Shown here piece by piece: positions 18,333-44,988 of a DNA stretch of 64,000 nt. Under the pieces are notes generated by a model. That model was not told the origin of the DNA. It did not search any database and saw only the letters and a list, made by a program, of their open reading frames with translations. Within the stretch, counting starts at the first letter, position 1, and every line of letters begins with the position of its first letter. Made by a program: the position numbers and the translations under genes. Source of the DNA: OCS116 cluster bacterium AG-390-A19 (lineage in GTDB: Bacteria; Pseudomonadota; Alphaproteobacteria; MED-G09); NCBI GenBank assembly GCA_003278145.1, contig QCGV01000001.1, positions 323,626 to 387,625 on the forward strand, in the 5' to 3' direction.

Positions 18333-18408
<76 letters not shown>

Positions 18409-18689: not shown

Positions 18690-19520
18690 TTAATCGTTTA
18701 TAAGTTTTTCTCTAAGAAATCTGGATAATTTATCAATTAATGCAACCATGATAAGTATTATTATTATTATGAAAAATGCTTGATCCCAGTATTGCGCCTT
18801 CATTCTCTCTGATAATTGAAGTCCTATACCGCCAGCACCAACTATTCCTAATATAACAGCTGATCGAGAGTTAGATTCAAAGAAATAAAGGCTCTGAGAA
18901 ATAAAAATTGGCACAACTTGCGGCATCAATCCAAATCTAATAGTAGATAATTTTGTTGATCCTGATGAAACTAGCCCTTCAATTTGTTTGTTATCACTAT
19001 TATCTGCAGCTTCTGAATATAGTTTTGATAAAGTTCCTGTATCAGCTACAAAAATTGCTAATACTCCTGAGAGAGGGCCTAAACCAAAAGCTCGAACAAA
19101 AATTAAAGCCCAAATAAGAATATCAACTCCGCGAATAAAATCTAGAATCCTCCTTACAATAAACCTAAATAAGTTTATTTTTGTAACTTGTCTTGATGCA
19201 AGTAACCCTAAAGGAATAGATATTACAGAGGCAGCAAAAGTTCCCAGAAAAGCCATAGCTAAAGTCTGTAAAATACCAACCAAGATTGAATTAAAATTCC
19301 ATGATAGAAAATCATTCCAAGTGACCATTGAAAGTAATATTGGTTTCATTTTGTTCAGACCGTTTAAAAGTTCGGTAACTGAAATATTAAAATATTTTAT
19401 TGAAAAAATTAGGTATGAAAAAATTAGTAAGGAAAAGAAAATTTTTAAAGGTGAACGTTTCCATAATGGAGAAAATATTTTTGGATAAAGCGTCACTATC
19501 TCTTGATTAGTCATTTTCAA
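18690..19520 (-). CDS. phnE: Phosphonate/phosphate ABC transporter permease
   Basis: GLGPLSGVLA, ESNSRSAVILGIVGAGGIG. Confidence 0.9.
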   Translation of the reverse strand: MKMTNQEIVTLYPKIFSPLWKRSPLKIFFSLLIFSYLIFSIKYFNISVTELLNGLNKMKPILLSMVTWNDFLSWNFNSILVGILQTLAMAFLGTFAASVISIPLGLLASRQVTKINLFRFIVRRILDFIRGVDILIWALIFVRAFGLGPLSGVLAIFVADTGTLSKLYSEAADNSDNKQIEGLVSSGSTKLSTIRFGLMPQVVPIFISQSLYFFESNSRSAVILGIVGAGGIGLQLSERMKAQYWDQAFFIIIIILIMVALIDKLSRFLREKLIND

Positions 19521-20376
19521 TCCTGGTAATATTTTTTCTCAGATAGCCTGATAATAAATCAATCGATATGACGGTTAAAATTATCAATAATATAATTGCA
19601 CTAACTTCTTCATAATAATTAAAATTAATTACAAGATATAACTCTTGACCTATTCCGCCTGCGCCAACAAAGCCTAAAATTGTTGAAGCCCTTATATTAA
19701 TCTCAAATCTAAGTAGTGCGTATGAAATTAAATTTGGAAGAACTTGTGGTAATAATCCAAATTTCATTTCTGATAACCAGTTTCCTCCTGATGCCTTAAG
19801 AGCCTCTATTGGTTTATTGTTCGAGTTTTCATGAACTTCAGAAAATAATTTACCCAGGGACCCAGTTGTATGAAGTGTCATTGCTATAATCCCTGCAAGT
19901 GGACCAATTCCCAATACCCAAACAAATAGAATTGCAAAAATTATTTCTGGAACTCCTCTAAAAAATTCAAGTATTCTTCTAATAGAAAAAAAGAGTAGAG
20001 AATTAGGGGAAGTATTTTTTGCTGCTAAAAAACTTAAAAAAAGTGCTAATGTTGAACCTACAATGGTTGCAAGAAGAGCCATGTTAAAAGTTTCAAAAAG
20101 TAATTTTAAGTATTTAGGTAGATTAAAATACCAATAAGCAATAGATCCTTGATCTTTAGAGCCAAGAAATAACTTATTTGATTCTATTGAAGGAAGAATT
20201 TGTGAAACGTAATCACCTAGTCTTGGCATTCCATTTAATAGATTTGAGACATTAATATCTATTATTTTAGAGGAAAGTATTACTCCAATAAATATTAAAA
20301 TAATAAGGGATAAATTCCAAAAACGTTTTTTTCCTATTAAATTTTTATAATGATTATCGGAAGTTATTTTATTCAT
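19507..20376 (-). CDS. phnE: Phosphonate/phosphate ABC transporter permease
   Basis: RGVPE, GIGPLAG, RFEINIRASTILGFVGAGGIG. Confidence 0.92.
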   Translation of the reverse strand: MNKITSDNHYKNLIGKKRFWNLSLIILIFIGVILSSKIIDINVSNLLNGMPRLGDYVSQILPSIESNKLFLGSKDQGSIAYWYFNLPKYLKLLFETFNMALLATIVGSTLALFLSFLAAKNTSPNSLLFFSIRRILEFFRGVPEIIFAILFVWVLGIGPLAGIIAMTLHTTGSLGKLFSEVHENSNNKPIEALKASGGNWLSEMKFGLLPQVLPNLISYALLRFEINIRASTILGFVGAGGIGQELYLVINFNYYEEVSAIILLIILTVISIDLLSGYLRKNITRIEND

Positions 20377-21115
20377 CGTCTAAATCATAGAGCTTCTTTG
20401 CAATATCAGCTGTTAACTGGTTTGGCTTTCCATCAAAAACAACTTCTCCTTCAGATAAACCAATTAAGCGGTCACAATATTTTTTTGCTATCTCTAAAGA
20501 GTGAAGATTACATATAATAGTTATTCCATCTTCTCGATTAATTTTAAGCATATCGTCCATAACTTTTTTTGAATTTTTTGGGTCTAAAGATGAGATTGGT
20601 TCATCAGCTAATAGGATTTTTGGTTTTTGCATTAAAGCTCTTGCAATAGCAACTCTTTGTTGTTGTCCTCCCGATAATGTTCCAGATCTCTGAAGAGATT
20701 TTTCGGCAAGTTCAAACCTGTCTAGATTTTTTAATGCATTAATTTTTTCTTCCTTTGAAAAATATCCAAATAAATTTAAAAAACTATAACTCCTGCCTAA
20801 ACTCCCTATTAAAACATTTGTTAACACATCTAATCGATCAACTAAGTTAAATTGTTGAAAAATCATAGCGCATTCTGAACGCCACCTTCTTAGTGCTTTT
20901 CCTCTGATATCTGTAATAATTATACCATTAAATTCGATTGAGCCTTCAGTTGGTTCAATCAATCTATTTATCATTCTTAGAAGAGTTGATTTACCGGATC
21001 CAGATCGACCAATAATCCCAGTAATTTTACCTTGTTCGACCTCAAGGTTTATATTGTTAATCGCAACTGTATCCTTGAACTTTTTTTTAAGATTTTTTAT
21101 TCTGAGTGGTTTCAT
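20369..21115 (-). CDS. phnC: Phosphonate ABC transporter ATP-binding protein
   Basis: GRSGSGKST, MIFQQFNLV, LSGGQQQRV, ADEPISSLDP, NLH. Confidence 0.93.
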   Translation of the reverse strand: MKPLRIKNLKKKFKDTVAINNINLEVEQGKITGIIGRSGSGKSTLLRMINRLIEPTEGSIEFNGIIITDIRGKALRRWRSECAMIFQQFNLVDRLDVLTNVLIGSLGRSYSFLNLFGYFSKEEKINALKNLDRFELAEKSLQRSGTLSGGQQQRVAIARALMQKPKILLADEPISSLDPKNSKKVMDDMLKINREDGITIICNLHSLEIAKKYCDRLIGLSEGEVVFDGKPNQLTADIAKKLYDLDDE

Positions 21116-21207: not shown

Positions 21208-22710
21208 ATGAAACTCTTTTATTTAAAAGCCATAATAATTATATTTCTAGTTTTCTATTCAAGCAACGCTTTTGCAAGTGTTGATCAAAGCATTAACGAT
21301 TTTTTAGAACCTATTGCCTCGCTTATTTCAGGGATTGTTTTTTATTCACTTCCAATTGGAAGTGCTAATGTTGAGTTAATTGTTATTTGGCTTATAGCTG
21401 GAGGCTTATTTTCAACTTTTTATTTTAAATTCATTAATTTTAGAGGTTTTAAACATGCCTTAGAATTAGTTTCTGGAAAATTTTCAAAAAAAGAATCAAA
21501 GGGTGAGGTTTCACACTTTAAAGCTTTAGCAACTGCTTTATCTGGAACCGTTGGTTTAGGAAATATCGGTGGAGTAGCTGTAGCCATTTCTCTTGGGGGT
21601 CCCGGTGCAACTTTTTGGATGATACTATCTGGCTTAATCGGTATGTCTTTGAAATTTTGTGAGTGCACTTTAGGAGTGAAATACAGAAATATTAATCCTG
21701 ACGGAACTGTTTCAGGTGGACCTATGTATTATTTATCGAAAGGTCTTCAAGAGAAGGGTTTTAAGTTTTTAGGTAGTATTCTTGCCTATATGTTTGCAAT
21801 TTTTTGCATTTTTGCATCACTAGGTGGTGGAAATATGTTTCAGGTTAATCAATCTTTAGACCTATTAATTTATGTTACAGGAGGTAGTGGAAGTTTCTTG
21901 GACCTACACTCCTGGGTTTATGGATCTTTTATAGCTATTCTTGTTGGTTTGGTAATTATTGGAGGAATTAAAAGAATTGGTTCAGTTACCTCAAAATTAG
22001 TTCCTTCAATGGCAGTAATTTATTTAGTTTCATCTTTGATTATTATTTTTTCAAATTATGACCAAATACCATCAGCAATTTCATCAATTTTTATAGGCGC
22101 ATTTTCTCCCGAAGGAGTAACAGGTGGTTTCCTTGGTGTATTGATTCTTGGCTTTAGAAGAGCTGTGTTTTCCAATGAGGCAGGAATTGGGTCTGCACCT
22201 ATCGCACATTCCGCAGTAAAAACAGATGATCCCACAACCGAAGGGTTGGTTTCTCTATTGGAACCATTTGTTGATACAGTTATTATTTGTACTTTAACAG
22301 CATTAGTAATTATTACGTCTGGTGTTTATATAACAGGCCAAGAAATTGAAGGTGCAAGAATGACATCCCAGGCATTTGGAACGGTATTACCAACATTTCC
22401 TTATTTACTTGCTCTTGTTGCAACTCTATTTGCCTTTTCCACTATGATTTCTTGGTCATATTACGGTGTAAAGGCTGTTACCTTTATTTTTGGTGAGTCT
22501 AAAAATATTGAAACTCTATATAAAGTTATATTTTGTCTTTTTGCTATTGTTGGATCTTCACTTGATTTGGTTAAAGTAATCGATTTATCTGATGCAGCGT
22601 TATTTCTGATGGCAATTCCAAATTTAATCGGAGTTTATATTTTAGCTGGAATTGTTAAAAAAGAATCTCTTAATTATTTTTCTAAATTGAAGAAAATTGA
22701 AAAAGTTTAG
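21208..22710 (+). CDS. Alanine/glycine:cation symporter (AGCS family)
   Basis: ALSGTVGLGNI, GGPGA, GGPMYY, FSNEAGIGS, EPFVDT; ATG 21208 chosen over TTG 21133. Confidence 0.93.
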   Translation: MKLFYLKAIIIIFLVFYSSNAFASVDQSINDFLEPIASLISGIVFYSLPIGSANVELIVIWLIAGGLFSTFYFKFINFRGFKHALELVSGKFSKKESKGEVSHFKALATALSGTVGLGNIGGVAVAISLGGPGATFWMILSGLIGMSLKFCECTLGVKYRNINPDGTVSGGPMYYLSKGLQEKGFKFLGSILAYMFAIFCIFASLGGGNMFQVNQSLDLLIYVTGGSGSFLDLHSWVYGSFIAILVGLVIIGGIKRIGSVTSKLVPSMAVIYLVSSLIIIFSNYDQIPSAISSIFIGAFSPEGVTGGFLGVLILGFRRAVFSNEAGIGSAPIAHSAVKTDDPTTEGLVSLLEPFVDTVIICTLTALVIITSGVYITGQEIEGARMTSQAFGTVLPTFPYLLALVATLFAFSTMISWSYYGVKAVTFIFGESKNIETLYKVIFCLFAIVGSSLDLVKVIDLSDAALFLMAIPNLIGVYILAGIVKKESLNYFSKLKKIEKV

Positions 22711-23311
22711 TATTTTAAAATCAATTAAAGGCTTTATGGATCCAGATGAGGGAGAGTGTCTTTATAGATATTCCTTAGAAGCATCAAAAAAAGGACCAAT
22801 TTTAGAAATAGGATCATATTGCGGAAAATCAACAATTTATATTGGAACAGCATGTAAAGAAAATAATTCGCTCCTATATGCAATTGATCATCACACTGGA
22901 TCTGAAGAAAATCAAATCGGCTGGGAATACCATGATGAAGAACTATTTGATAGCGAGACTGGAAAAATTAATACTTTTCCGGAATTTAGAAAAAATATAA
23001 GAAGTTTTGATTTAGAAAAATTTGTTATTCCTATTGTTTCTGATTCTGTGTTAGTGGCTAAATACTGGACAATTAATCTATCAATGGTTTTTATAGATGG
23101 CGGGCATAGTGAAGAAGCAGCTTTTAATGATTTTGATAATTGGAATGATAAAATTATAAATGACGGATTTTTAGCCATTCACGATGTTTTTCCGAACCCT
23201 GATGACGGTGGAAGGCCTCCTTATGAAATTTTTCTCAAAGCAATAAATTCTGGAAAATTTAAAGAGTATAAAACTGTTAAGTCTCTAAAAATACTTAAAA
23301 AAGTTTTATAA
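22697..23311 (+). CDS. Class I SAM methyltransferase (Methyltransf_24; MeT1-like sugar 1-O-methyltransferase)
   Basis: GFMDPDEG, EIGSYCGKS, DHHTGSEE, FIDGGH, HDVFPNPDDGGRPP. Confidence 0.8.
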   Translation: MKKFSILKSIKGFMDPDEGECLYRYSLEASKKGPILEIGSYCGKSTIYIGTACKENNSLLYAIDHHTGSEENQIGWEYHDEELFDSETGKINTFPEFRKNIRSFDLEKFVIPIVSDSVLVAKYWTINLSMVFIDGGHSEEAAFNDFDNWNDKIINDGFLAIHDVFPNPDDGGRPPYEIFLKAINSGKFKEYKTVKSLKILKKVL

Positions 23312-24373
23312 AAGATCATCTAAAAATAATGATGACCCATTACTTAATTCATAAATTGCATCATATGCCAAAATTACCGCAGCAGAAGTCCAAGGCGGTC
23401 TCTCTTTTGGCCAAAAAACTTCAAGCTCATACTGTCGTCCCATCCAGTAGGCTCCTTCATCATCCCTCCACTGGTGAGTATATGAAATCATTTCTTTAGC
23501 TAATTTATTTTCACCAATTTTTTTTAGAGCAATTGCTAACTCTGCCGTTTCAGCTATTGTCACCCATGGTTGATCTTCGACACATTTACAACCAACCCCA
23601 TCAACTACAAACGTTTCCCATTTACTGAATAATTTTTCTTTAGCATCTTGTTTTGAAATTAAGCCACATAGAACAGGATAATACCAATCCATTGAAAAAC
23701 GTTGTTTTGAGTCCCAAGTTCTATCAAATAATTCAGGTTTATTTTTAATGGCATAACCTAATTTCTCCAAAGACTGCTTCCATTCATCAACATTTATATC
23801 TAAAATTTTCGCACATTTTATTGCACTTATAAGACTTTTATAAATTGAACAACAGCCTGTAATCAACGCATCATCATTTGGGGCAGACTCATCTTTCGCC
23901 GCCCACCTTATTTCACCTTCTAAAGATTGATTTCCAATAACAAAATTAATTGCGTTAAATATAGTAGGCCATAATTTGATAAGATCTTCTTTTGACTTAT
24001 TTACTAGATAATCGTGCCAAGAGGCGGTAGCAATATATGCTGCAAAGTTTGTATCTCTAATTAAACTTCCTGCATCACTTTCTTCTCCAGTAAAGGCTCC
24101 ACTATCTTCATCAAATTCAACAGTACTTCCCAGTTGTCCATACCATGATCCGTCTTTGAGTTGATAATTTTTTAAATAATCAAATCCTAAATCTTTTTCT
24201 TTTTTATAACCTAGTAAATTTAAAGCCATAACAGACTCAAGATGATTCCATGCATCAAAAACACCTTCTTTAAACCATGTTATTGATCCATTATTTTTTT
24301 GAAGTTCAATTATCCTGTTTGATGAGCCTTTAAAGAATTTAATTTTATCTTTGTTTACTATTTTTTCTGTCAT
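23306..24373 (-). CDS. Alpha/alpha-barrel protein, usually annotated 'prenyltransferase'; MmpH-like glycoside hydrolase candidate
   Basis: GSITW, DAWNHLES, DTNFAAYIA, ALITG, RFSMDWYYPVL, PWVTIAETAE, WTSAAV. Confidence 0.7.
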   Translation of the reverse strand: MTEKIVNKDKIKFFKGSSNRIIELQKNNGSITWFKEGVFDAWNHLESVMALNLLGYKKEKDLGFDYLKNYQLKDGSWYGQLGSTVEFDEDSGAFTGEESDAGSLIRDTNFAAYIATASWHDYLVNKSKEDLIKLWPTIFNAINFVIGNQSLEGEIRWAAKDESAPNDDALITGCCSIYKSLISAIKCAKILDINVDEWKQSLEKLGYAIKNKPELFDRTWDSKQRFSMDWYYPVLCGLISKQDAKEKLFSKWETFVVDGVGCKCVEDQPWVTIAETAELAIALKKIGENKLAKEMISYTHQWRDDEGAYWMGRQYELEVFWPKERPPWTSAAVILAYDAIYELSNGSSLFLDDLL

Positions 24374-24374
24374 T

Positions 24375-25085
24375 TTATTTTTTTTTGAAATATAGGACTA
24401 TTGATTTACCCATTACTGGATCAAAAAATTTTTCTAAAACTCTAGTAAGGATTGGTCTTTTTAAAATATCCCATTCTAGAAACTTTTTATATAAATTTAC
24501 AAAAATATTTTTTTCATTTTTAACACCTACATAACATTTTAACCACCAGTATGGCGAATGAAGACCATGTTTATAGGACTTTGATAAATAAAAAAAATTA
24601 TTACTCCTGAAGCTGTTAATAAGTTGTTTTTTGTTAAAAATATGAATGTGCCCACCTGGTTCATTATGATATTCATCAGATAGGTACCAACATATTTTCT
24701 CAGGAATCTGATTAGGAACTGATATTCCAATATATGAATTCTTTTTTGAAACTCTATGAATTTCATCGATTACTTTTTCATAATTTGGAATGTGCTCAAG
24801 AACTTCAGAGCATATTACTTGATCGAAAGTTTCATCTTTAAAAGGAAGTGAGAGAGCATTTCCGGTCATTAAATTGAAATGTCTGTTTGGATCATTTGTG
24901 ATATCTGGATAGGTTTCAAAACCTTGATAAGTAATTTTTATGTCCTCTAAAGAAAGGTCGAGACCAATTACATGACACTTCTTATAATAATAAAGCTTAT
25001 GGATATGTCTTCCTTTTCCACATCCAAGGTCTAAAATTGTGTCACCATCCTTAATTTTAATTTTATCTAGATCTATTGTCAGCAT
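24375..25085 (-). CDS. Class I SAM methyltransferase (OrfD / putative 3-O-methyltransferase-like)
   Basis: MLTIDL..LDLGCGKGRH, SEVLEHI, PEKICW.LSDEYH.EPGGHI, HGLHSPYWWLKC, GKSIVLY; start at 25085 overlaps the GT4 gene end. Confidence 0.8.
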   Translation of the reverse strand: MLTIDLDKIKIKDGDTILDLGCGKGRHIHKLYYYKKCHVIGLDLSLEDIKITYQGFETYPDITNDPNRHFNLMTGNALSLPFKDETFDQVICSEVLEHIPNYEKVIDEIHRVSKKNSYIGISVPNQIPEKICWYLSDEYHNEPGGHIHIFNKKQLINSFRSNNFFYLSKSYKHGLHSPYWWLKCYVGVKNEKNIFVNLYKKFLEWDILKRPILTRVLEKFFDPVMGKSIVLYFKKK

Positions 25086-26340
25086 TTGAAATTGCCTCTC
25101 TATAAACTTCAACTAATTCTTTAGCAGCTCTTTTCCAGGTAAATTTTTCTAAAACTCTTTTTCTTCCTTTTTCACCAAGCTCTTTTCTTTTTTCAGGCGA
25201 TAATAAGAGTTCTTTTATTGCTTTCCTTAATTCATTTGGGTTTGAATGAGGCACAATTATACCTGAATCACCTACGACTTCTGGGAGAGAACCTCCATTT
25301 GTTGAAATTAATGGAATACCACAAGACATTGCTTCACCTGCTGGAAATCCAAAACCCTCATAAACGGATGGTGAAATAGCAATTGTTGATTCAGCATATA
25401 ATTCTGCAATTTCCCTACTTGTTAAATCGGAGATAAATTTAACTTTATTTTTAATATCTTTTTTATCTAATTCATTACTGGTTGGGCCATCCCTTAACTT
25501 TCCTATAACAACTAAAGATAGGTCAGGAAACTCATCTAGAAGTTCTGAATATGCTCTAATTAGATAAATTAAACCCTTTAGAGGTACATCAGCACTTGCT
25601 GTAGTAATTAATTGATTTTTTTTTCTTTTAATAGATGGAATTGGTTCAAAAGTTTTATGATCAATCCCATGAAGTACTTTTCTTGTTTTTTTTGGATCTA
25701 TTTTAAAATCTTTTACTACATCTTTTCTAGTATTTTCAGACACCACAATTATAGGGTCTAGCTTTCTAGCAACTTTAATCTGCATTTTTAAGAAGCTGTA
25801 CCATCTCCATTTAAGTAATTTAAGTGATAAAGTTTCAGCGTGTTTGATATCTATTCTTTTATCCATAGTAATAGGGTGATGAATTGTTCCTACAACCGGA
25901 ACACCCATATCTCTTAATTTTATTAATCCATAAGCTAAAGTCTGGTTATCATGTACAACATCGAATCTTTCATAATTTTCTTTACCCCAAATTGCCATTC
26001 TTTCGCCAAAAGTATATGGCTCAGAAAAACCACCACTCAAATGACTTAGCCATTCATAAAGGTTAATAGGTTCTTTAAGAAGATTTAATCTAAAAGCTTT
26101 AAGAGGACTATCGAAAGAATAAAGATCAAGTGATGGTAATTTGGTTAATTTAACCCCTTTATCTAGAATTGGGTAAGGTTGTCCCGATACAACTTCAACA
26201 GTATGTCCTAATTCAACCATAGCTTTAGTCACTAAACGCATGTAAATACCCTGACCACCTGTAAAAGGGTGGCTTCTATAGCTAGGCATCAAAATTCTTA
26301 GGGGTTTATCGTTTATTTTACTCATGGAGACTTGTATCAT
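25063..26340 (-). CDS. Glycosyltransferase family 4 (ManT-like alpha-mannosyltransferase candidate)
   Basis: SYRS..GGQG.Y, SGQPYP, PSLDLY, HDNQTL, TIHHPIT, TASADVPLKG, GT4 EX7E motif YEGFGFPAGE; alternative start 26325. Confidence 0.85.
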   Translation of the reverse strand: MIQVSMSKINDKPLRILMPSYRSHPFTGGQGIYMRLVTKAMVELGHTVEVVSGQPYPILDKGVKLTKLPSLDLYSFDSPLKAFRLNLLKEPINLYEWLSHLSGGFSEPYTFGERMAIWGKENYERFDVVHDNQTLAYGLIKLRDMGVPVVGTIHHPITMDKRIDIKHAETLSLKLLKWRWYSFLKMQIKVARKLDPIIVVSENTRKDVVKDFKIDPKKTRKVLHGIDHKTFEPIPSIKRKKNQLITTASADVPLKGLIYLIRAYSELLDEFPDLSLVVIGKLRDGPTSNELDKKDIKNKVKFISDLTSREIAELYAESTIAISPSVYEGFGFPAGEAMSCGIPLISTNGGSLPEVVGDSGIIVPHSNPNELRKAIKELLLSPEKRKELGEKGRKRVLEKFTWKRAAKELVEVYREAISNADNRSR

Positions 26341-26460: not shown

Positions 26461-27819
<1,359 letters not shown>

Positions 27820-28077
27820 TTACCAGCAATAGTACCTATTACAAAATCTGTTATCTAAACCATTTCTTCTTATTGCATCTGTATTTTTATCCTGAGCTCT
27901 AATTGATTTTAAGGTCAATCTACAGGTACCATAAGCTTCGGTTCCTTCAATAAAAGATAATTTTATACATTCTTCATGATCAATTTTATCTCTTAATGCA
28001 GCTCTTTCCTCAAGTGCTTGTTGAGAAACGCAAGAAGAAAGAAAAATTATTAATGTTAATATTATAGTTTTTTTCAT
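27820..28077 (-). CDS. Small putative lipoprotein
   Basis: MKK, hydrophobic stretch, LSSC lipobox; four further Cys. Confidence 0.65.
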   Translation of the reverse strand: MKKTIILTLIIFLSSCVSQQALEERAALRDKIDHEECIKLSFIEGTEAYGTCRLTLKSIRAQDKNTDAIRRNGLDNRFCNRYYCW

Positions 28078-28084
28078 TTTTTCC

Positions 28085-29266
28085 TCATTTGTTTCGACTT
28101 AACTCTTTCATACCTTTATCCAAACCGTCTAATGTTAATGGATACATTCTGTCAGATATAATCTGACTAATTATTTGAGTGGAAGGTGTGAATTCCCAAT
28201 GTTTTGTTTCAACTGGATTTATCCATATTACATTTTGATAAATATCAGTAATTCTTTGTAACCACTCTGCGCCTGCTTCTTCATTCCAATGTTCAACACT
28301 ACCACCTGGGTAGGTGATTTCATATGGACTCATTGACGCATCTCCTACAAAAATAACTTTATAATCTGATGAATATTTATGTAAGATATCCCAAGTATCA
28401 ATTTTTTCGGTATGCCTTCTTCTATTGTCTTTCCAAACACTTTCATACAAGCAATTGTGAAAATAAAAACTTTCCATATTCTTAAATTCTGTTTTAGCTG
28501 CTGAAAAAAGTTCTTCACATAGCTTAACATGCATATCCATTGAGCCACCAATATCAAAAAATAATAGAACTTTAACTTTATTTCTTCTTTCGGGTACTAA
28601 AGATATATCTAAATAACCTTTATCTGCAGTATTTTTAATAGTTCCGGGTAGATCAAGTGTGTCCGCTGCACCATCTCTCGCAAATTTTCTAAGCCTTCTA
28701 AGTGCAACTTTTATATTTCTAGTACCAATTTCAACATCTTTATCTAAATTTTTGAACTCTCTCTTGTCCCATACCTTAACAGCTTTATAATTTTTATTTT
28801 CTTTTTGTCCTATTCTAATACCCTCTGGATTATAACCATCAGATCCATAAGGAGATGTACCACCAGTCCCAATCCATTTAGAGCCTCCTTCATGCCTTTT
28901 CTCTTGTTCTTCAAGCCGTTTTTTTAATTCTTCCATTAATTTATCCCAGCCACCCATAGACTCAATTTTTTGTTTTTCTTCTTCGGTAAGGAATTTTTCA
29001 TTAAGTGTTTTTAACCACTCTTCAGGGATTTCAGTAATTTCATCTGACTCTAAAGACTCAAGACCTTTAAAGACATGACCAAAAACACGATCAAATTTAT
29101 CGAGATTTTTTTCATCTTTAACAAGAGTTGATCTTGATAAATAATAGAATTCCTCAATCTTTCTATTAGGTATGTCCTTATCCATTGCTTCCAATAGAGT
29201 TAAATACTCCCTCAAAGAAACTGGCAGATTAGCATTTTTTAATTCATGAAAAAAATTAACGAACAT
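28085..29266 (-). CDS. VWA-domain protein (CoxE-like)
   Basis: WIGTGGTSP, DIGGSM MIDAS-like motif, FHNCLYE, GDASMSP. Confidence 0.9.
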   Translation of the reverse strand: MFVNFFHELKNANLPVSLREYLTLLEAMDKDIPNRKIEEFYYLSRSTLVKDEKNLDKFDRVFGHVFKGLESLESDEITEIPEEWLKTLNEKFLTEEEKQKIESMGGWDKLMEELKKRLEEQEKRHEGGSKWIGTGGTSPYGSDGYNPEGIRIGQKENKNYKAVKVWDKREFKNLDKDVEIGTRNIKVALRRLRKFARDGAADTLDLPGTIKNTADKGYLDISLVPERRNKVKVLLFFDIGGSMDMHVKLCEELFSAAKTEFKNMESFYFHNCLYESVWKDNRRRHTEKIDTWDILHKYSSDYKVIFVGDASMSPYEITYPGGSVEHWNEEAGAEWLQRITDIYQNVIWINPVETKHWEFTPSTQIISQIISDRMYPLTLDGLDKGMKELSRNK

Positions 29267-29275
29267 TGAAAATTA

Positions 29276-30121
29276 CTACCCATTCTCTCTTCTAGCTAAG
29301 AAAGCCAATCTTTCAAAAAGATGAACATCCTGTTCATTTTTTAATAAGGCACCATGTAACGGTGGAATTAAGTTATTAGCATTTTTTTCTCTTAACATTT
29401 CTGGTTTAATGTCCTCATTCATAAGTAATTTAAGCCAATCTAAAAGTTCGGAGGTTGAAGGTTTTTTCTTAATTCCTGGAACATCCCGAAGTTCGTAAAA
29501 AACTTTAAGAGACTCAGATACTAATTTTGATTTAATTTTTGGATAATGAACATCTACAATTTTTTCCATTGTATCTGCATCAGGAAAAGAAATATAATGA
29601 AAAAAGCATCTTCTTAAAAATGCATCTGGTAATTCTTTTTCATTATTTGAGGTAATTATAACAACTGGTCTTTTTGCAGCTTTTATTGTTTCGTTAGTTT
29701 CGTAAACAAAAAATTCCATTCTATCTAGTTCTTGAAGTAAATCATTTGGGAATTCAATATCAGCTTTATCAATTTCATCAATTAATAAAATTGGCCTTTC
29801 ATTGGACTCGAATGCCTCCCATAATTTACCTTGTTTGATATAGTTTTTTATATCTTTAACTTTTTCATCGCCTAATTGAGAGTCCCTTAGTCTCGTTATT
29901 GCGTCATATTCATAGAGACCTTGCTGAGCTTTTGTTGTTGATTTTATATGCCATGTTATTAAAGGCATTTTAAGAGCTTTTGAAACTTCTTCCGCCAATA
30001 CGGTTTTACCTGTTCCAGGTTCACCTTTAATGAGCAATGGTCTTTCAAGTGTAACTGCAGCATTTACAGCGATACGAAGATCTTCTGTTGCTATATAATC
30101 TTTTGTTCCTTCGAACTTCAT
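29276..30121 (-). CDS. MoxR-family AAA+ ATPase (CoxD-like)
   Basis: GEPGTGKT, LIDEIDKAD, TSNNEKELPDAFLRRC. Confidence 0.93.
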   Translation of the reverse strand: MKFEGTKDYIATEDLRIAVNAAVTLERPLLIKGEPGTGKTVLAEEVSKALKMPLITWHIKSTTKAQQGLYEYDAITRLRDSQLGDEKVKDIKNYIKQGKLWEAFESNERPILLIDEIDKADIEFPNDLLQELDRMEFFVYETNETIKAAKRPVVIITSNNEKELPDAFLRRCFFHYISFPDADTMEKIVDVHYPKIKSKLVSESLKVFYELRDVPGIKKKPSTSELLDWLKLLMNEDIKPEMLREKNANNLIPPLHGALLKNEQDVHLFERLAFLARRENG

Positions 30122-44900: not shown

Positions 44901-44988
44901 GCGGCCATGGTGGAACAGGTAGACACAAGGGACTTAAAATCCCTCGGCAGATAATGCCGTCCCGGTTCGACTCCGGGTGGCCGCACCA
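44901..44988 (+). tRNA. tRNA-Leu (anticodon UAA)
   Basis: GCGGCCA acceptor, AGGGA-CTTAAAA-TCCCT anticodon arm, long variable arm, GGTTCGACTCC, CCA end. Confidence 0.97.

Follow-up and report, generated by a model that had tools for sequence, protein, structure and literature searches.

A four-gene block in a streamlined marine alphaproteobacterium as a predicted counterpart of the mycobacterial methylmannose polysaccharide cluster

Could the genes for a methylmannose polysaccharide (MMP) exist, as an intact set, in an alphaproteobacterium? This question is raised by four genes at positions 22697-26340 of the DNA analyzed here, a window of 64,000 nucleotides from OCS116 cluster bacterium AG-390-A19. 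An original prediction, made from the sequence alone, had read them as an MMP-like cluster. The mycobacterial gene cluster, for which Ripoll-Rozada et al. (2019) is reportedly also a source, is manT-pmeT3-mmpH-meT1. It corresponds to MHAS_04402-04405 in M. hassiacum and to MSMEG_6481-6484 in M. smegmatis, and it has so far been described in Actinobacteria only (Maranha et al. 2023, PMC9883506).

All four open reading frames are present with the spacing first described, and every motif quoted in the original prediction is found in their translations. Three genes lie on the minus strand: the manT homologue, encoding a GT4 glycosyltransferase of 425 aa (25063..26340; PF00534, 114 bits; PF13439, 68 bits), the pmeT3 homologue, encoding a class I SAM methyltransferase of 245 aa (24375..25112; PF13489, 75.5 bits; Methyltransf_23/31/11), and the mmpH homologue, encoding an (alpha/alpha)6-barrel protein of 355 aa (23306..24373). 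The meT1 homologue is on the plus strand (22697..23311, TTG start) and encodes a Methyltransf_24 protein of 204 aa (PF13578, 73 bits). Given a TTG start at 25112, the first two genes overlap by 50 nt; a gap of 1 bp separates the second from the third, whose 3' end shares 6 bp (23306-23311) with that of the convergent fourth gene. Translation of pMeT3 may actually begin at the ATG of residue 10, since its homologues align from residues 6-9. Compared with two congeners, dN/dS amounts to 0.04-0.12 across the cluster genes (0.04 for manT, about 0.10 for mmpH), which indicates that they are under purifying selection. RNA-library contigs from two studies span parts of manT, pmeT3 and mmpH and barely cover meT1, one joining mmpH to pmeT3 and another pmeT3 to manT; they hint weakly at transcription of the cluster, as they give no strand and could derive from carried-over DNA.

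In agreement with the original prediction, reciprocal searches with named Mycobacterium genomes pair the four proteins with ManT, pMeT3, MmpH and MeT1 as mutual best hits. In three of these genomes, the best matches of the window GT4 (308-319 bits against at most 98 for the runner-up) and of the window class I methyltransferase (194-197 bits against at most 28) are two adjoining genes. In the reverse direction, with the clusters of M. scrofulaceum and M. ahvazicum as the source of queries, all four proteins find the window genes as their best matches in the window's genome, and for pMeT3 both directions together give 194-204 bits against at most 41 for the runner-up. Identity to the actinobacterial copies is 35-48% for the four proteins (40-44% to 26 copies for the GT4, 36-41% to the same-position gene of 27 clusters for pMeT3, 42-48% to 24 copies for MeT1), and the order manT, pmeT3, mmpH, then convergent meT1, is the mycobacterial one. 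Judged by sequence comparison, the reading of the block as an MMP cluster holds at the gene level. We consider it likely that the four genes are an orthologous, vertically inherited counterpart of the mycobacterial cluster, and that their product would be made as MMP is.

The comparison with solved structures, which had also been suggested, gave full-length matches to MeT1, MmpH and putative ManT entries. The GT4 matches PDB 7qsg over residues 14-419 (E 2e-92), the next PDB match being at 4.7e-19. We infer that this entry, deposited under a generic name, is ManT, because its residue numbering fits exactly the ManT residues of PMC9883506, from which the catalytic residue lists of both ManT and MmpH were taken. 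The published catalytic residues of both enzymes are all retained. Across the 89 copies of ManT, no variation occurs at the equivalents of G15, H142, K240, E313, G314, F315 and E321. For the 355-aa protein, PDB 7qsj (MmpH) is the sole PDB match (E 3.5e-70); a Pfam scan yielded no family at E<=0.01, and a match to the TIGR01577 oligosaccharide amylase model is weak (18.9 bits for a cut-off of 820.7). Annotation names agree with the remark that MmpH is often called a prenyltransferase. All 98 copies of MmpH agree at the equivalents of D47, W49, M215, Y219, E262 and E265, and also at N101 save for one X, and the sugar-subsite residues N101, T163, M215, Y219, E265 and W315 are conserved. On the other hand, the window differs from the mycobacterial cluster at MmpH Asp50, replaced by Asn in all 42 alphaproteobacterial copies including its own; Asp47 never varies. 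An Asp50 to Ala variant of M. hassiacum MmpH is nearly inactive (PMC9883506). Fold and general catalytic machinery are shared by ManT with PimA and MshA, and by MmpH with GH15 glucodextranase and GH125 exo-alpha-1,6-mannosidases (PMC9883506). However, PimA and MshA match the window GT4 at E 1e-8 to 1e-15, and these matches, like that to the amylase model, are far weaker than those to ManT and MmpH themselves, which places the window proteins in the MMP-specific subfamilies.

As for the two methyltransferases, the 204-aa protein aligns over residues 4-202 with MeT1 (PDB 6g7d/6g80/6h40, E 6.8e-56), and its gene is the only match of a mycobacterial MeT1 query in the window's genome (G000). At least 81 of 82 copies agree in 36 of its columns, among them D64-H65-H66, G68-S69-E70-E71, D134-G135-H137 and H162-D163. 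The PDB matches of the pMeT3 homologue include no specific solved structure, the best being MitM (5e-9), and its C-terminal H182/H185/W189/W190/C193 block is kept in at least 91 of 92 copies. We know of no organism in which a 3-O-methyltransferase activity of the pMeT3 type has been demonstrated.

From these data, the GT4 is predicted to be an alpha-(1->4)-mannosyltransferase elongating (methyl)mannooligosaccharide primers, the 245-aa protein a 3-O-methyltransferase of the mannan, the 204-aa protein a 1-O-methyltransferase capping the reducing end, and the 355-aa protein an endo-alpha-(1->4)-mannosidase cutting the polymer into primers. By homology to the M. hassiacum enzymes, the most likely mechanism would have four steps. 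ManT would add alpha-(1->4)-mannose from a nucleotide-mannose onto tri- or tetramannoside primers, pMeT3 would methylate O-3 of the mannoses, MeT1 would methylate O-1 at the reducing end, and MmpH would cut finished chains internally and thus release primers for daughter chains, a recycling scheme termed 'partially conservative replication' for MMP (PMC9883506).

One would then wonder what benefit such a polymer brings to the cell. We propose that it could coil into a helix lined with methyl groups and so host long acyl chains, in a cell living largely on acyl-CoA oxidation, and this is the least secure step of our proposal. The qualification of the organism as lipid-oxidising is plausible, since its 1.37-Mb genome gives 13 matches to acyl-CoA dehydrogenase. 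In an evenly drawn sample of the class, counted by hand and including two unpublished genomes that lack the cluster (G240 and G067), all 34 genomes carrying the MmpH gene have at least nine such matches, compared with 145 of the 367 lacking it; this is a correlation only, with genome size and kinship as confounders, and the positives belong to just 12 families. Among other hosts, Parvibaculum, Syntrophus/Smithella and SAR86 are known as users of fatty acids, alkanes or lipids. To our knowledge, Proteobacteria have no FAS-I, the classical proposed target of regulation by MMP, so the role assigned to MMP cannot simply be transferred to them. Another hypothesis, possible but the less probable one, is that MMP, or a short methylated mannooligosaccharide, protects the cell here against cold or osmotic stress, or stores carbon. 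Supporting this idea, the hosts here are ocean bacteria, their nearest protein clusters coming from Tara and other marine metagenomes and the RNA contigs from marine metatranscriptomes, and disruption of MMP biogenesis slowed growth at low temperature, with a suspected growth-rate role removed (PMC9883506). However, the richness of all cluster-positive genomes in acyl-CoA dehydrogenase matches and the lifestyles of the other hosts argue against it, and a polymer with mostly methylated hydroxyls would make a poor compatible solute.

A further point concerns the product itself, for which we infer MMP. Since intact counterparts of all four genes are present in this alphaproteobacterium, the MMP-type polymer is probably not confined to actinobacteria; in the literature, we found no chemical detection of 3-O-methylmannose or MMP in this organism or any proteobacterium. 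The same families could instead make a different methylated alpha-glycan, with another donor nucleotide, hexose, length, methylation or acylation, which we regard as rather unlikely. A precedent is Streptomyces griseus, where a cluster of this type outside Mycobacterium leads to acetylated MMP (AMMP) (PMC9883506). A Streptomyces locus (L091) has ManT, pMeT3 and MmpH homologues with no MeT1 within its 6-kb flanks, but the window has no acyltransferase gene within its block or next to it. The cytoplasmic 6-O-methylglucose lipopolysaccharide (MGLP) of mycobacteria, the other polymethylated polysaccharide proposed to bind acyl chains (PMC9883506; PMC2674218), involves other enzymes and another sugar, and none of the four proteins exceeds the cut-off of MGLP-related NCBIfam models.

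The search for GDP-mannose genes elsewhere, advised in the original prediction, gave a divided answer. In the 25 genomes of the order, GMP_PMI was never found above its curated cut-off, and the NTP_transferase matches are RmlA-like or GlmU-like, the exceptions being a fragment truncated by the end of its contig and two weakly matching ORFs of 193 aa; control genomes gave the targets in both searches. A GDP-mannose pyrophosphorylase is thus not recognised in the order, and the window's genome, unlike mycobacteria, has no recognisable ManC. By contrast, GDP-mannose 4,6-dehydratase passes its curated cut-off in 19 of the 25 genomes, among them all 8 of high quality, from which we take it that these cells handle GDP-mannose despite the unrecognised synthase. 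Within ManT, Asp293, proposed to contact guanine N2 (PMC9883506), is retained by 25 of 26 actinobacterial copies, but all 18 copies of the order have Ser or Gly at the equivalent position (Ser in the window), which varies in other non-actinobacterial clades. Leu317 is replaced by Phe in 45 of the 46 copies from alpha- and gammaproteobacteria, the window's among them. Moreover, it is mostly main-chain atoms of ManT that recognise the mannosyl group (PMC9883506), so the sequence leaves the sugar unfixed. Together with the unrecognised pyrophosphorylase, these features of ManT speak for a different product. Against a different product, the sugar subsites of MmpH and the core of MeT1 are kept, favouring the same methylmannoside substrates, and the variation at Asp293, without any single replacement, suggests that constraint was relaxed rather than that specificity changed.

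The MMP-type polymer would stay cytoplasmic, as the four proteins have no membrane segments (maximal 19-residue hydropathy of at most 1.27 in each) and the block has no exporter. That it would rather be an exported envelope or LPS-linked methylated mannan seems to us very improbable: O-antigen loci commonly hold GT4 enzymes and methyltransferases, and mycobacterial ManT activity was first detected in membrane fractions (PMC9883506), but neither the block nor its conserved flanks contain a flippase, ABC exporter, polymerase, ligase or lipid-carrier glycosyltransferase, the site belongs to the conserved core, unlike a variable polysaccharide island, and a dedicated endo-hydrolase without signal peptide fits internal recycling.

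Finally, we considered the descent of the block. Names and kinship uphold the assignment of the organism to the alphaproteobacteria, and a genome of 1.37 Mb at 83% completeness its description as streamlined; compared with mycobacteria, the host is Gram-negative. Co-occurrence of the four genes in related genomes is borne out, both in the order and in loci of other species. Of the 99 sources compared, made up of the window, 18 loci from its own order and 80 loci from other species, 77 encode all four proteins at a coverage of at least 85%, and many of the misses are at contig ends. The hosts are Parvibaculales-like Alphaproteobacteria, SAR86, Syntrophales and Actinomycetota, with an identical gene order across these loci; the four-gene arrangement is more than chance. 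Within the order, the MmpH gene occurs in 22 of 25 genomes and 8 of 8 of high quality, the three genomes without it being 55-76% complete. The flanking genes are kept in 12-17 of 17 loci, and the outermost, MoxR-like gene in 9 of these 17, which extend only about 5 kb beyond mmpH; the cluster is thus at a fixed chromosomal site in the order. A recent acquisition from Actinobacteria or a binning contaminant, which the earlier descriptions limited to that group might suggest, is contradicted by the four-protein tree, the low actinobacterial identity and the conserved flanks, and is extremely improbable, the block lying inside a 402-kb contig with the GC content of the window (0.30-0.33). Indeed, the tree (77 rows) follows taxonomy, which indicates old descent: each taxon group corresponds to one change, 'alpha' to two as the order nests inside it (SH-aLRT 100), and the actinobacterial copies form a separate clade with a support of 100. 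The order is nested in the Alphaproteobacteria, where its sister group (SH-aLRT 98), a marine clade of Rhodobiaceae/Parvibaculales, has the flank with ferredoxin and reductase in common with it.

The four genes of the predicted methylmannose polysaccharide (MMP) cluster form a compact block. The gene of a GT4 glycosyltransferase of 425 aa, the ManT homologue (25063-26340, minus strand), is overlapped by that of a class I SAM methyltransferase of 245 aa, the pMeT3 homologue (24375-25112, minus strand), and 1 bp downstream of the latter lies the gene of a 355-aa protein, the MmpH homologue (23306-24373, minus strand). A 204-aa Methyltransf_24 protein, the MeT1 homologue, is encoded convergently (22697-23311, plus strand), and its gene and that of the 355-aa protein overlap at their ends by 6 bp. 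The GC content of the window is about 0.30-0.37. The motifs quoted in the original prediction were all found in the translations of the four ORFs. MMP itself is made of 10-13 alpha-1,4-linked 3-O-methylmannoses with a 1-O-methyl cap. None of the four proteins received a family-specific name from NCBIfam, and no Pfam family was found for the 355-aa protein.

The proteins were also compared with the sequences of solved structures. The 204-aa protein matched M. hassiacum MeT1 over its full length (PDB ID 6g7d/6g80/6h40, E 6.8e-56), and the sole match of the 355-aa protein among all PDB sequences was MmpH (PDB ID 7qsj, E 3.5e-70). The GT4 protein matched PDB ID 7qsg with an E-value of 2e-92, the next GT4 being at 4.7e-19. 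The depositor name of this entry is generic, and we infer that it is ManT because an offset of 26 places the ManT residues described by Maranha et al. 2023 exactly on its sequence. Identity to these solved structures is 40-50%. No specific solved relative was found among PDB sequences for the 245-aa methyltransferase. In the genomes of M. scrofulaceum, M. parascrofulaceum and M. ahvazicum, its best match scored 194-197 bits and the runner-up at most 28, and adjoined the best match of the GT4 protein (308-319 bits versus at most 98). For the reverse search, the M. scrofulaceum and M. ahvazicum counterparts of the four proteins (loci L069 and L079) were queried against the whole genome of the window organism. 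The best matches were the window genes, with 201-316 bits, while second-best matches stayed at or below 41 bits or were absent. Since forward and reverse searches agree, all four genes are reciprocal best hits of the MMP enzymes and their order is identical. Indeed, the arrangement manT, pmeT3, mmpH with an adjacent meT1 is common to the window and the compared loci, and all four proteins were recovered at a coverage of at least 85% in 77 of the 99 sources. In the Syntrophales loci (L044-L064 and L086), meT1 does not abut mmpH but lies about 3 kb past it, and extra genes are found within the cluster. Altogether, reciprocal best hits and gene order bear out, at the gene level, the proposal of an MMP cluster. 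It is an MMP-type gene system in a lineage and a physiology for which, as far as the literature can be searched, there is no printed description. For pMeT3, orthology and position would make it a putative 3-O-methyltransferase; in PMC9883506, 3-O-methylation of mannosides by this enzyme is likewise still termed "putative".

The residues given for the M. hassiacum enzymes in PMC9883506 were then mapped onto alignments of 89 ManT and 98 MmpH copies, drawn from the window, 18 loci of the window organism's order and 80 from other species. The same paper reports that the ManT mutants K240A and E321A are inactive and that E313A is impaired. The catalytic and donor-binding residues G15, H142, K240, E313 and E321, which correspond to G28, H154, K255, E328 and E336 in the window, are each invariant (89/89), and so are the equivalents of G314 and F315 in these 89 copies. 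Guanine contacts proposed in PMC9883506, through the main chain of Leu291 and the side chain of Asp293 (to guanine N2), would designate GDP-mannose as the donor; the contact is described there as modelled from PimA, not observed. The equivalent of Leu291 is kept in the window (L306), and that of Asp293 is S308. This position is occupied by Ser in 11 and by Gly in 7 of the 18 order copies, by Asp in 25 of the 26 from actinobacteria, and is variable in SAR86 and Syntrophales. From this variation, Asp293 appears dispensable outside actinobacteria.

For MmpH, PMC9883506 designates Glu262 as the catalytic base and either Asp47 or Asp50 as the acid, together with the subsite residues W49, N101, F102, T163, M215, Y219, E265 and W315. 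The window protein possesses E262, D47, W49, N101 and F102 (as E275, D40, W42, N109 and F110) as well as T163, M215, Y219, E265 and W315 (as T172, M228, Y232, E278 and W328). Among the 98 copies, the equivalents of D47, W49, M215, Y219, E262 and E265 are invariant, Asp47 thus being retained in 98/98. The Asp50 position is N43 in the window; Asn is found there in 42/42 alphaproteobacterial and 5/28 actinobacterial copies, and Asp in 7/7 gammaproteobacterial, 21/21 Syntrophales and 23/28 actinobacterial copies. Since Asn is tolerated at position 50 and Asp47 never changes, natural variation points to Asp47, and not Asp50, as the probable indispensable catalytic acid. Finally, the MeT1 alignment, which spans five taxon groups, contains 36 columns that are kept in at least 81 of its 82 copies, including the DHH.GSEE, DGGH and HD blocks.

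MMP synthesis needs GDP-mannose, and hence phosphomannose isomerase (PMI), PMM and mannose-1-phosphate guanylyltransferase. The original prediction had suggested looking for GDP-mannose genes elsewhere in the genome. The genome was found to encode a PGM/PMM-family protein of 494 aa as PMM/PGM candidate, a PMI cupin within a fusion protein, and a GDP-mannose 4,6-dehydratase; the guanylyltransferase was not recognised. The dehydratase (G000:C8:13978-15012 in the window genome) stands alone between ORFs that look by eye photolyase-like and nitronate-monooxygenase-like. It passes the curated cut-off in 19 of the 25 genomes of the order, the window genome and all eight high-quality ones (8/8) included, and GDP-mannose is therefore probably available. 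On the other hand, the bifunctional GMP_PMI model stayed below its cut-off in all order genomes (0/25) in a search of 61 genomes in which 17 others passed, and neither this model nor NTP_transferase led us to recognise a mannose-1-phosphate guanylyltransferase in any of the 25. The NTP_transferase matches in the order consisted of an RmlA-like protein (8 genomes), a protein of about 450 aa that is GlmU in the two genomes where it was scanned (G003 and G004), a truncated fragment where a contig ends (G021) and two weak 193-aa ORFs (G011 and G015). The genomes of this order would thus make GDP-mannose with no recognisable enzyme for this step.

A candidate for this missing step is a non-canonical NDP-mannose synthase, which could be the fusion protein. 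Encoded outside the window on the plus strand (G000:C4:68600-69376, the same gene as L011:1051-1830), this protein of 259 aa joins a cytidylyltransferase-like domain with a HIGH motif (PF01467, residues 10-82), for which rfaE domain II and TagD are the nearest models, to a PMI cupin (PF01050, residues 152-254). Its domain logic is like that of ManC, but its transferase domain is unrelated. It is present at full length in the window genome and in 11 of 24 order relatives. That the fusion would be the order's only GDP-mannose source is ruled out by four genomes in which PF01050 has no match (G004, 96% complete; G011, 90%; G016, 96%; G019, 87%), unless it resides there in a poorly binned island.

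The cluster is under constraint: comparison with two congeners gave a dN/dS of 0.04 for manT and of 0.10-0.12 for pmeT3, mmpH and meT1. The window genome amounts to 1.37 Mb in 29 contigs and is 83% complete, and our sample of the order is made of 25 species genomes of a single family, 0.9-1.6 Mb in size. Co-occurrence in related genomes was observed, the cluster order being common to the compared loci and the MmpH gene being present in 22/25 genomes of this sample, including 8/8 of high quality; the three genomes devoid of it are 55-76% complete.

The cluster position is a fixed core site and not an island. Its flanks, in order loci reaching just about 5 kb past mmpH, are kept in 12-17 of 17 loci, with the exception of the outermost MoxR-like gene (9/17). 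Besides the genes of a phosphonate ABC transporter and an amino-acid carrier, they comprise those of a 2Fe-2S ferredoxin, a flavoprotein resembling thioredoxin reductase and a VWA protein, and a small lipoprotein-like ORF. The transporter genes, PhnC and two PhnE permeases (18690-21115, minus strand), all score above curated cut-offs and are conserved next to the cluster in 12-15 of the 17 order loci. The ferredoxin (26464-26784, plus strand) and the flavoprotein, probably a ferredoxin-NADP reductase (26785-27813, minus strand), are found directly beside manT. Both were observed there in 17/17 order loci and in the sister marine alphaproteobacterial clade, and in no other clade; this adjacency may be plain inherited synteny. 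Further on come the lipoprotein-like ORF of 85 aa (27820-28077), present in 17/17 order loci and absent from all other loci compared, and the genes of a VWA-like protein of 393 aa with no NCBIfam match and of a MoxR/MadB-like AAA ATPase scoring 111 bits, under the cut-off (28085-30121, minus strand). Two tRNA genes, at 18336-18408 (minus strand) and 44901-44985 (plus strand), are the sole Rfam matches of the window at gathering score.

With the four proteins concatenated, a maximum-likelihood tree (quick search, LG+G4, 77 rows) recovered the order, SAR86, Syntrophales and Actinomycetota as one group each, with an SH-aLRT of 100. The order is nested among other Alphaproteobacteria, its sister group (98) being a marine Rhodobiaceae/Parvibaculales clade in which the ferredoxin flanks the cluster in 7/8 loci and the flavoprotein in 5/8. 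Flags for compositional bias and for some long branches were raised on this tree, and the deep relations between phyla therefore cannot be read from it. Despite these flags, the separate actinobacterial group and the nesting of the order within Alphaproteobacteria exclude a recent acquisition from actinobacteria. The complete MMP enzyme set is a core, selected trait of a type of Alphaproteobacteria abundant in the ocean, and likewise of SAR86, Parvibaculales and Syntrophales.

Where would the polymer reside? The 19-residue hydropathy maximum does not exceed 1.27 in any of the four proteins, which display no membrane-like segment, and no export gene was found near the cluster among the flank genes scanned. 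The simplest reading is that the polymer would be cytoplasmic. For about fifty years, MMP has been investigated as a peculiarity of mycobacteria, and its role is still debated between regulation of FAS-I, buffering of acyl-CoAs and adaptation to cold. To our knowledge, the order of the window organism, SAR86, Parvibaculales and Syntrophales have no FAS-I. Carriers devoid of FAS-I allow the FAS-I explanation to be tested apart from the other roles, and some carrier groups have cultured members, such as Parvibaculum and Syntrophus.

As for the binding of long acyl chains, which PMC9883506 reports for mycobacterial MMP, the window genome displays 13 acyl-CoA dehydrogenase matches in its 1.37 Mb. 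In a sample of the class, which includes the unpublished and cluster-negative genomes G240 and G067, at least nine such matches were counted by hand in 34/34 cluster-positive genomes versus 145/367 negatives, a comparison that separates only nine or more from fewer than nine and is confounded by kinship and genome size. As kin are not independent, the correlation is only suggestive of a link between the cluster and an acyl-chain role. We propose, as a tentative view that we hold to be possible rather than probable, that MMP would not be a speciality of actinobacteria and could be an old, vertically kept, FAS-I-independent cytoplasmic carrier of acyl chains in bacteria living on fatty acids, alkanes or lipids (this order, Parvibaculales, SAR86 and Syntrophales), the mannosyl donor of the order being provided by a non-canonical enzyme, for which the 259-aa fusion is a possibility.

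Contigs from marine metatranscriptomes of two studies matched the cluster at 95-100% identity and covered parts of mmpH, pmeT3 and manT, with one piece spanning mmpH/pmeT3 (24259-24565) and another pmeT3/manT (24627-25968). In all four runs, the stretch 23574-23807 had no cover, and meT1 was barely covered. These RNA-library contigs, which do not indicate the strand and could include carried-over DNA, lend weak support to transcription of the cluster.

With respect to distribution, cluster loci were found in SAR86, other Alphaproteobacteria and Syntrophales. In the searchable literature, the MMP cluster is described for Actinobacteria only, and papers that mention both methylmannose and proteobacteria do not deal with it, judged by titles and the beginnings of abstracts. 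The word "Proteobacteria" is likewise absent from PMC9883506, whose supplement (Table S1, Figs S7 and S10), with some 150 aligned homologues, may include non-actinobacterial sequences. From 5367 candidates, a protein search with a threshold of E<=1e-10 retrieved 2804 relatives, and when one genome per species was scanned, at least 598 stretches matched. The relatives, where named, are called "prenyltransferase" or "hypothetical", labels that for MmpH relatives represent a common misannotation, corrected here. An even sample of the class contained 34 positive genomes out of 401 (33/396 for those of high quality), belonging to 12 families. Among named records, the closest copies (67% identity for MeT1, 59% for MmpH) come from L027, a public MAG contig of 4535 bases labelled only "Pseudomonadota bacterium", which probably belongs to the order of the window organism. 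This contig also carries flank genes typical of the order.
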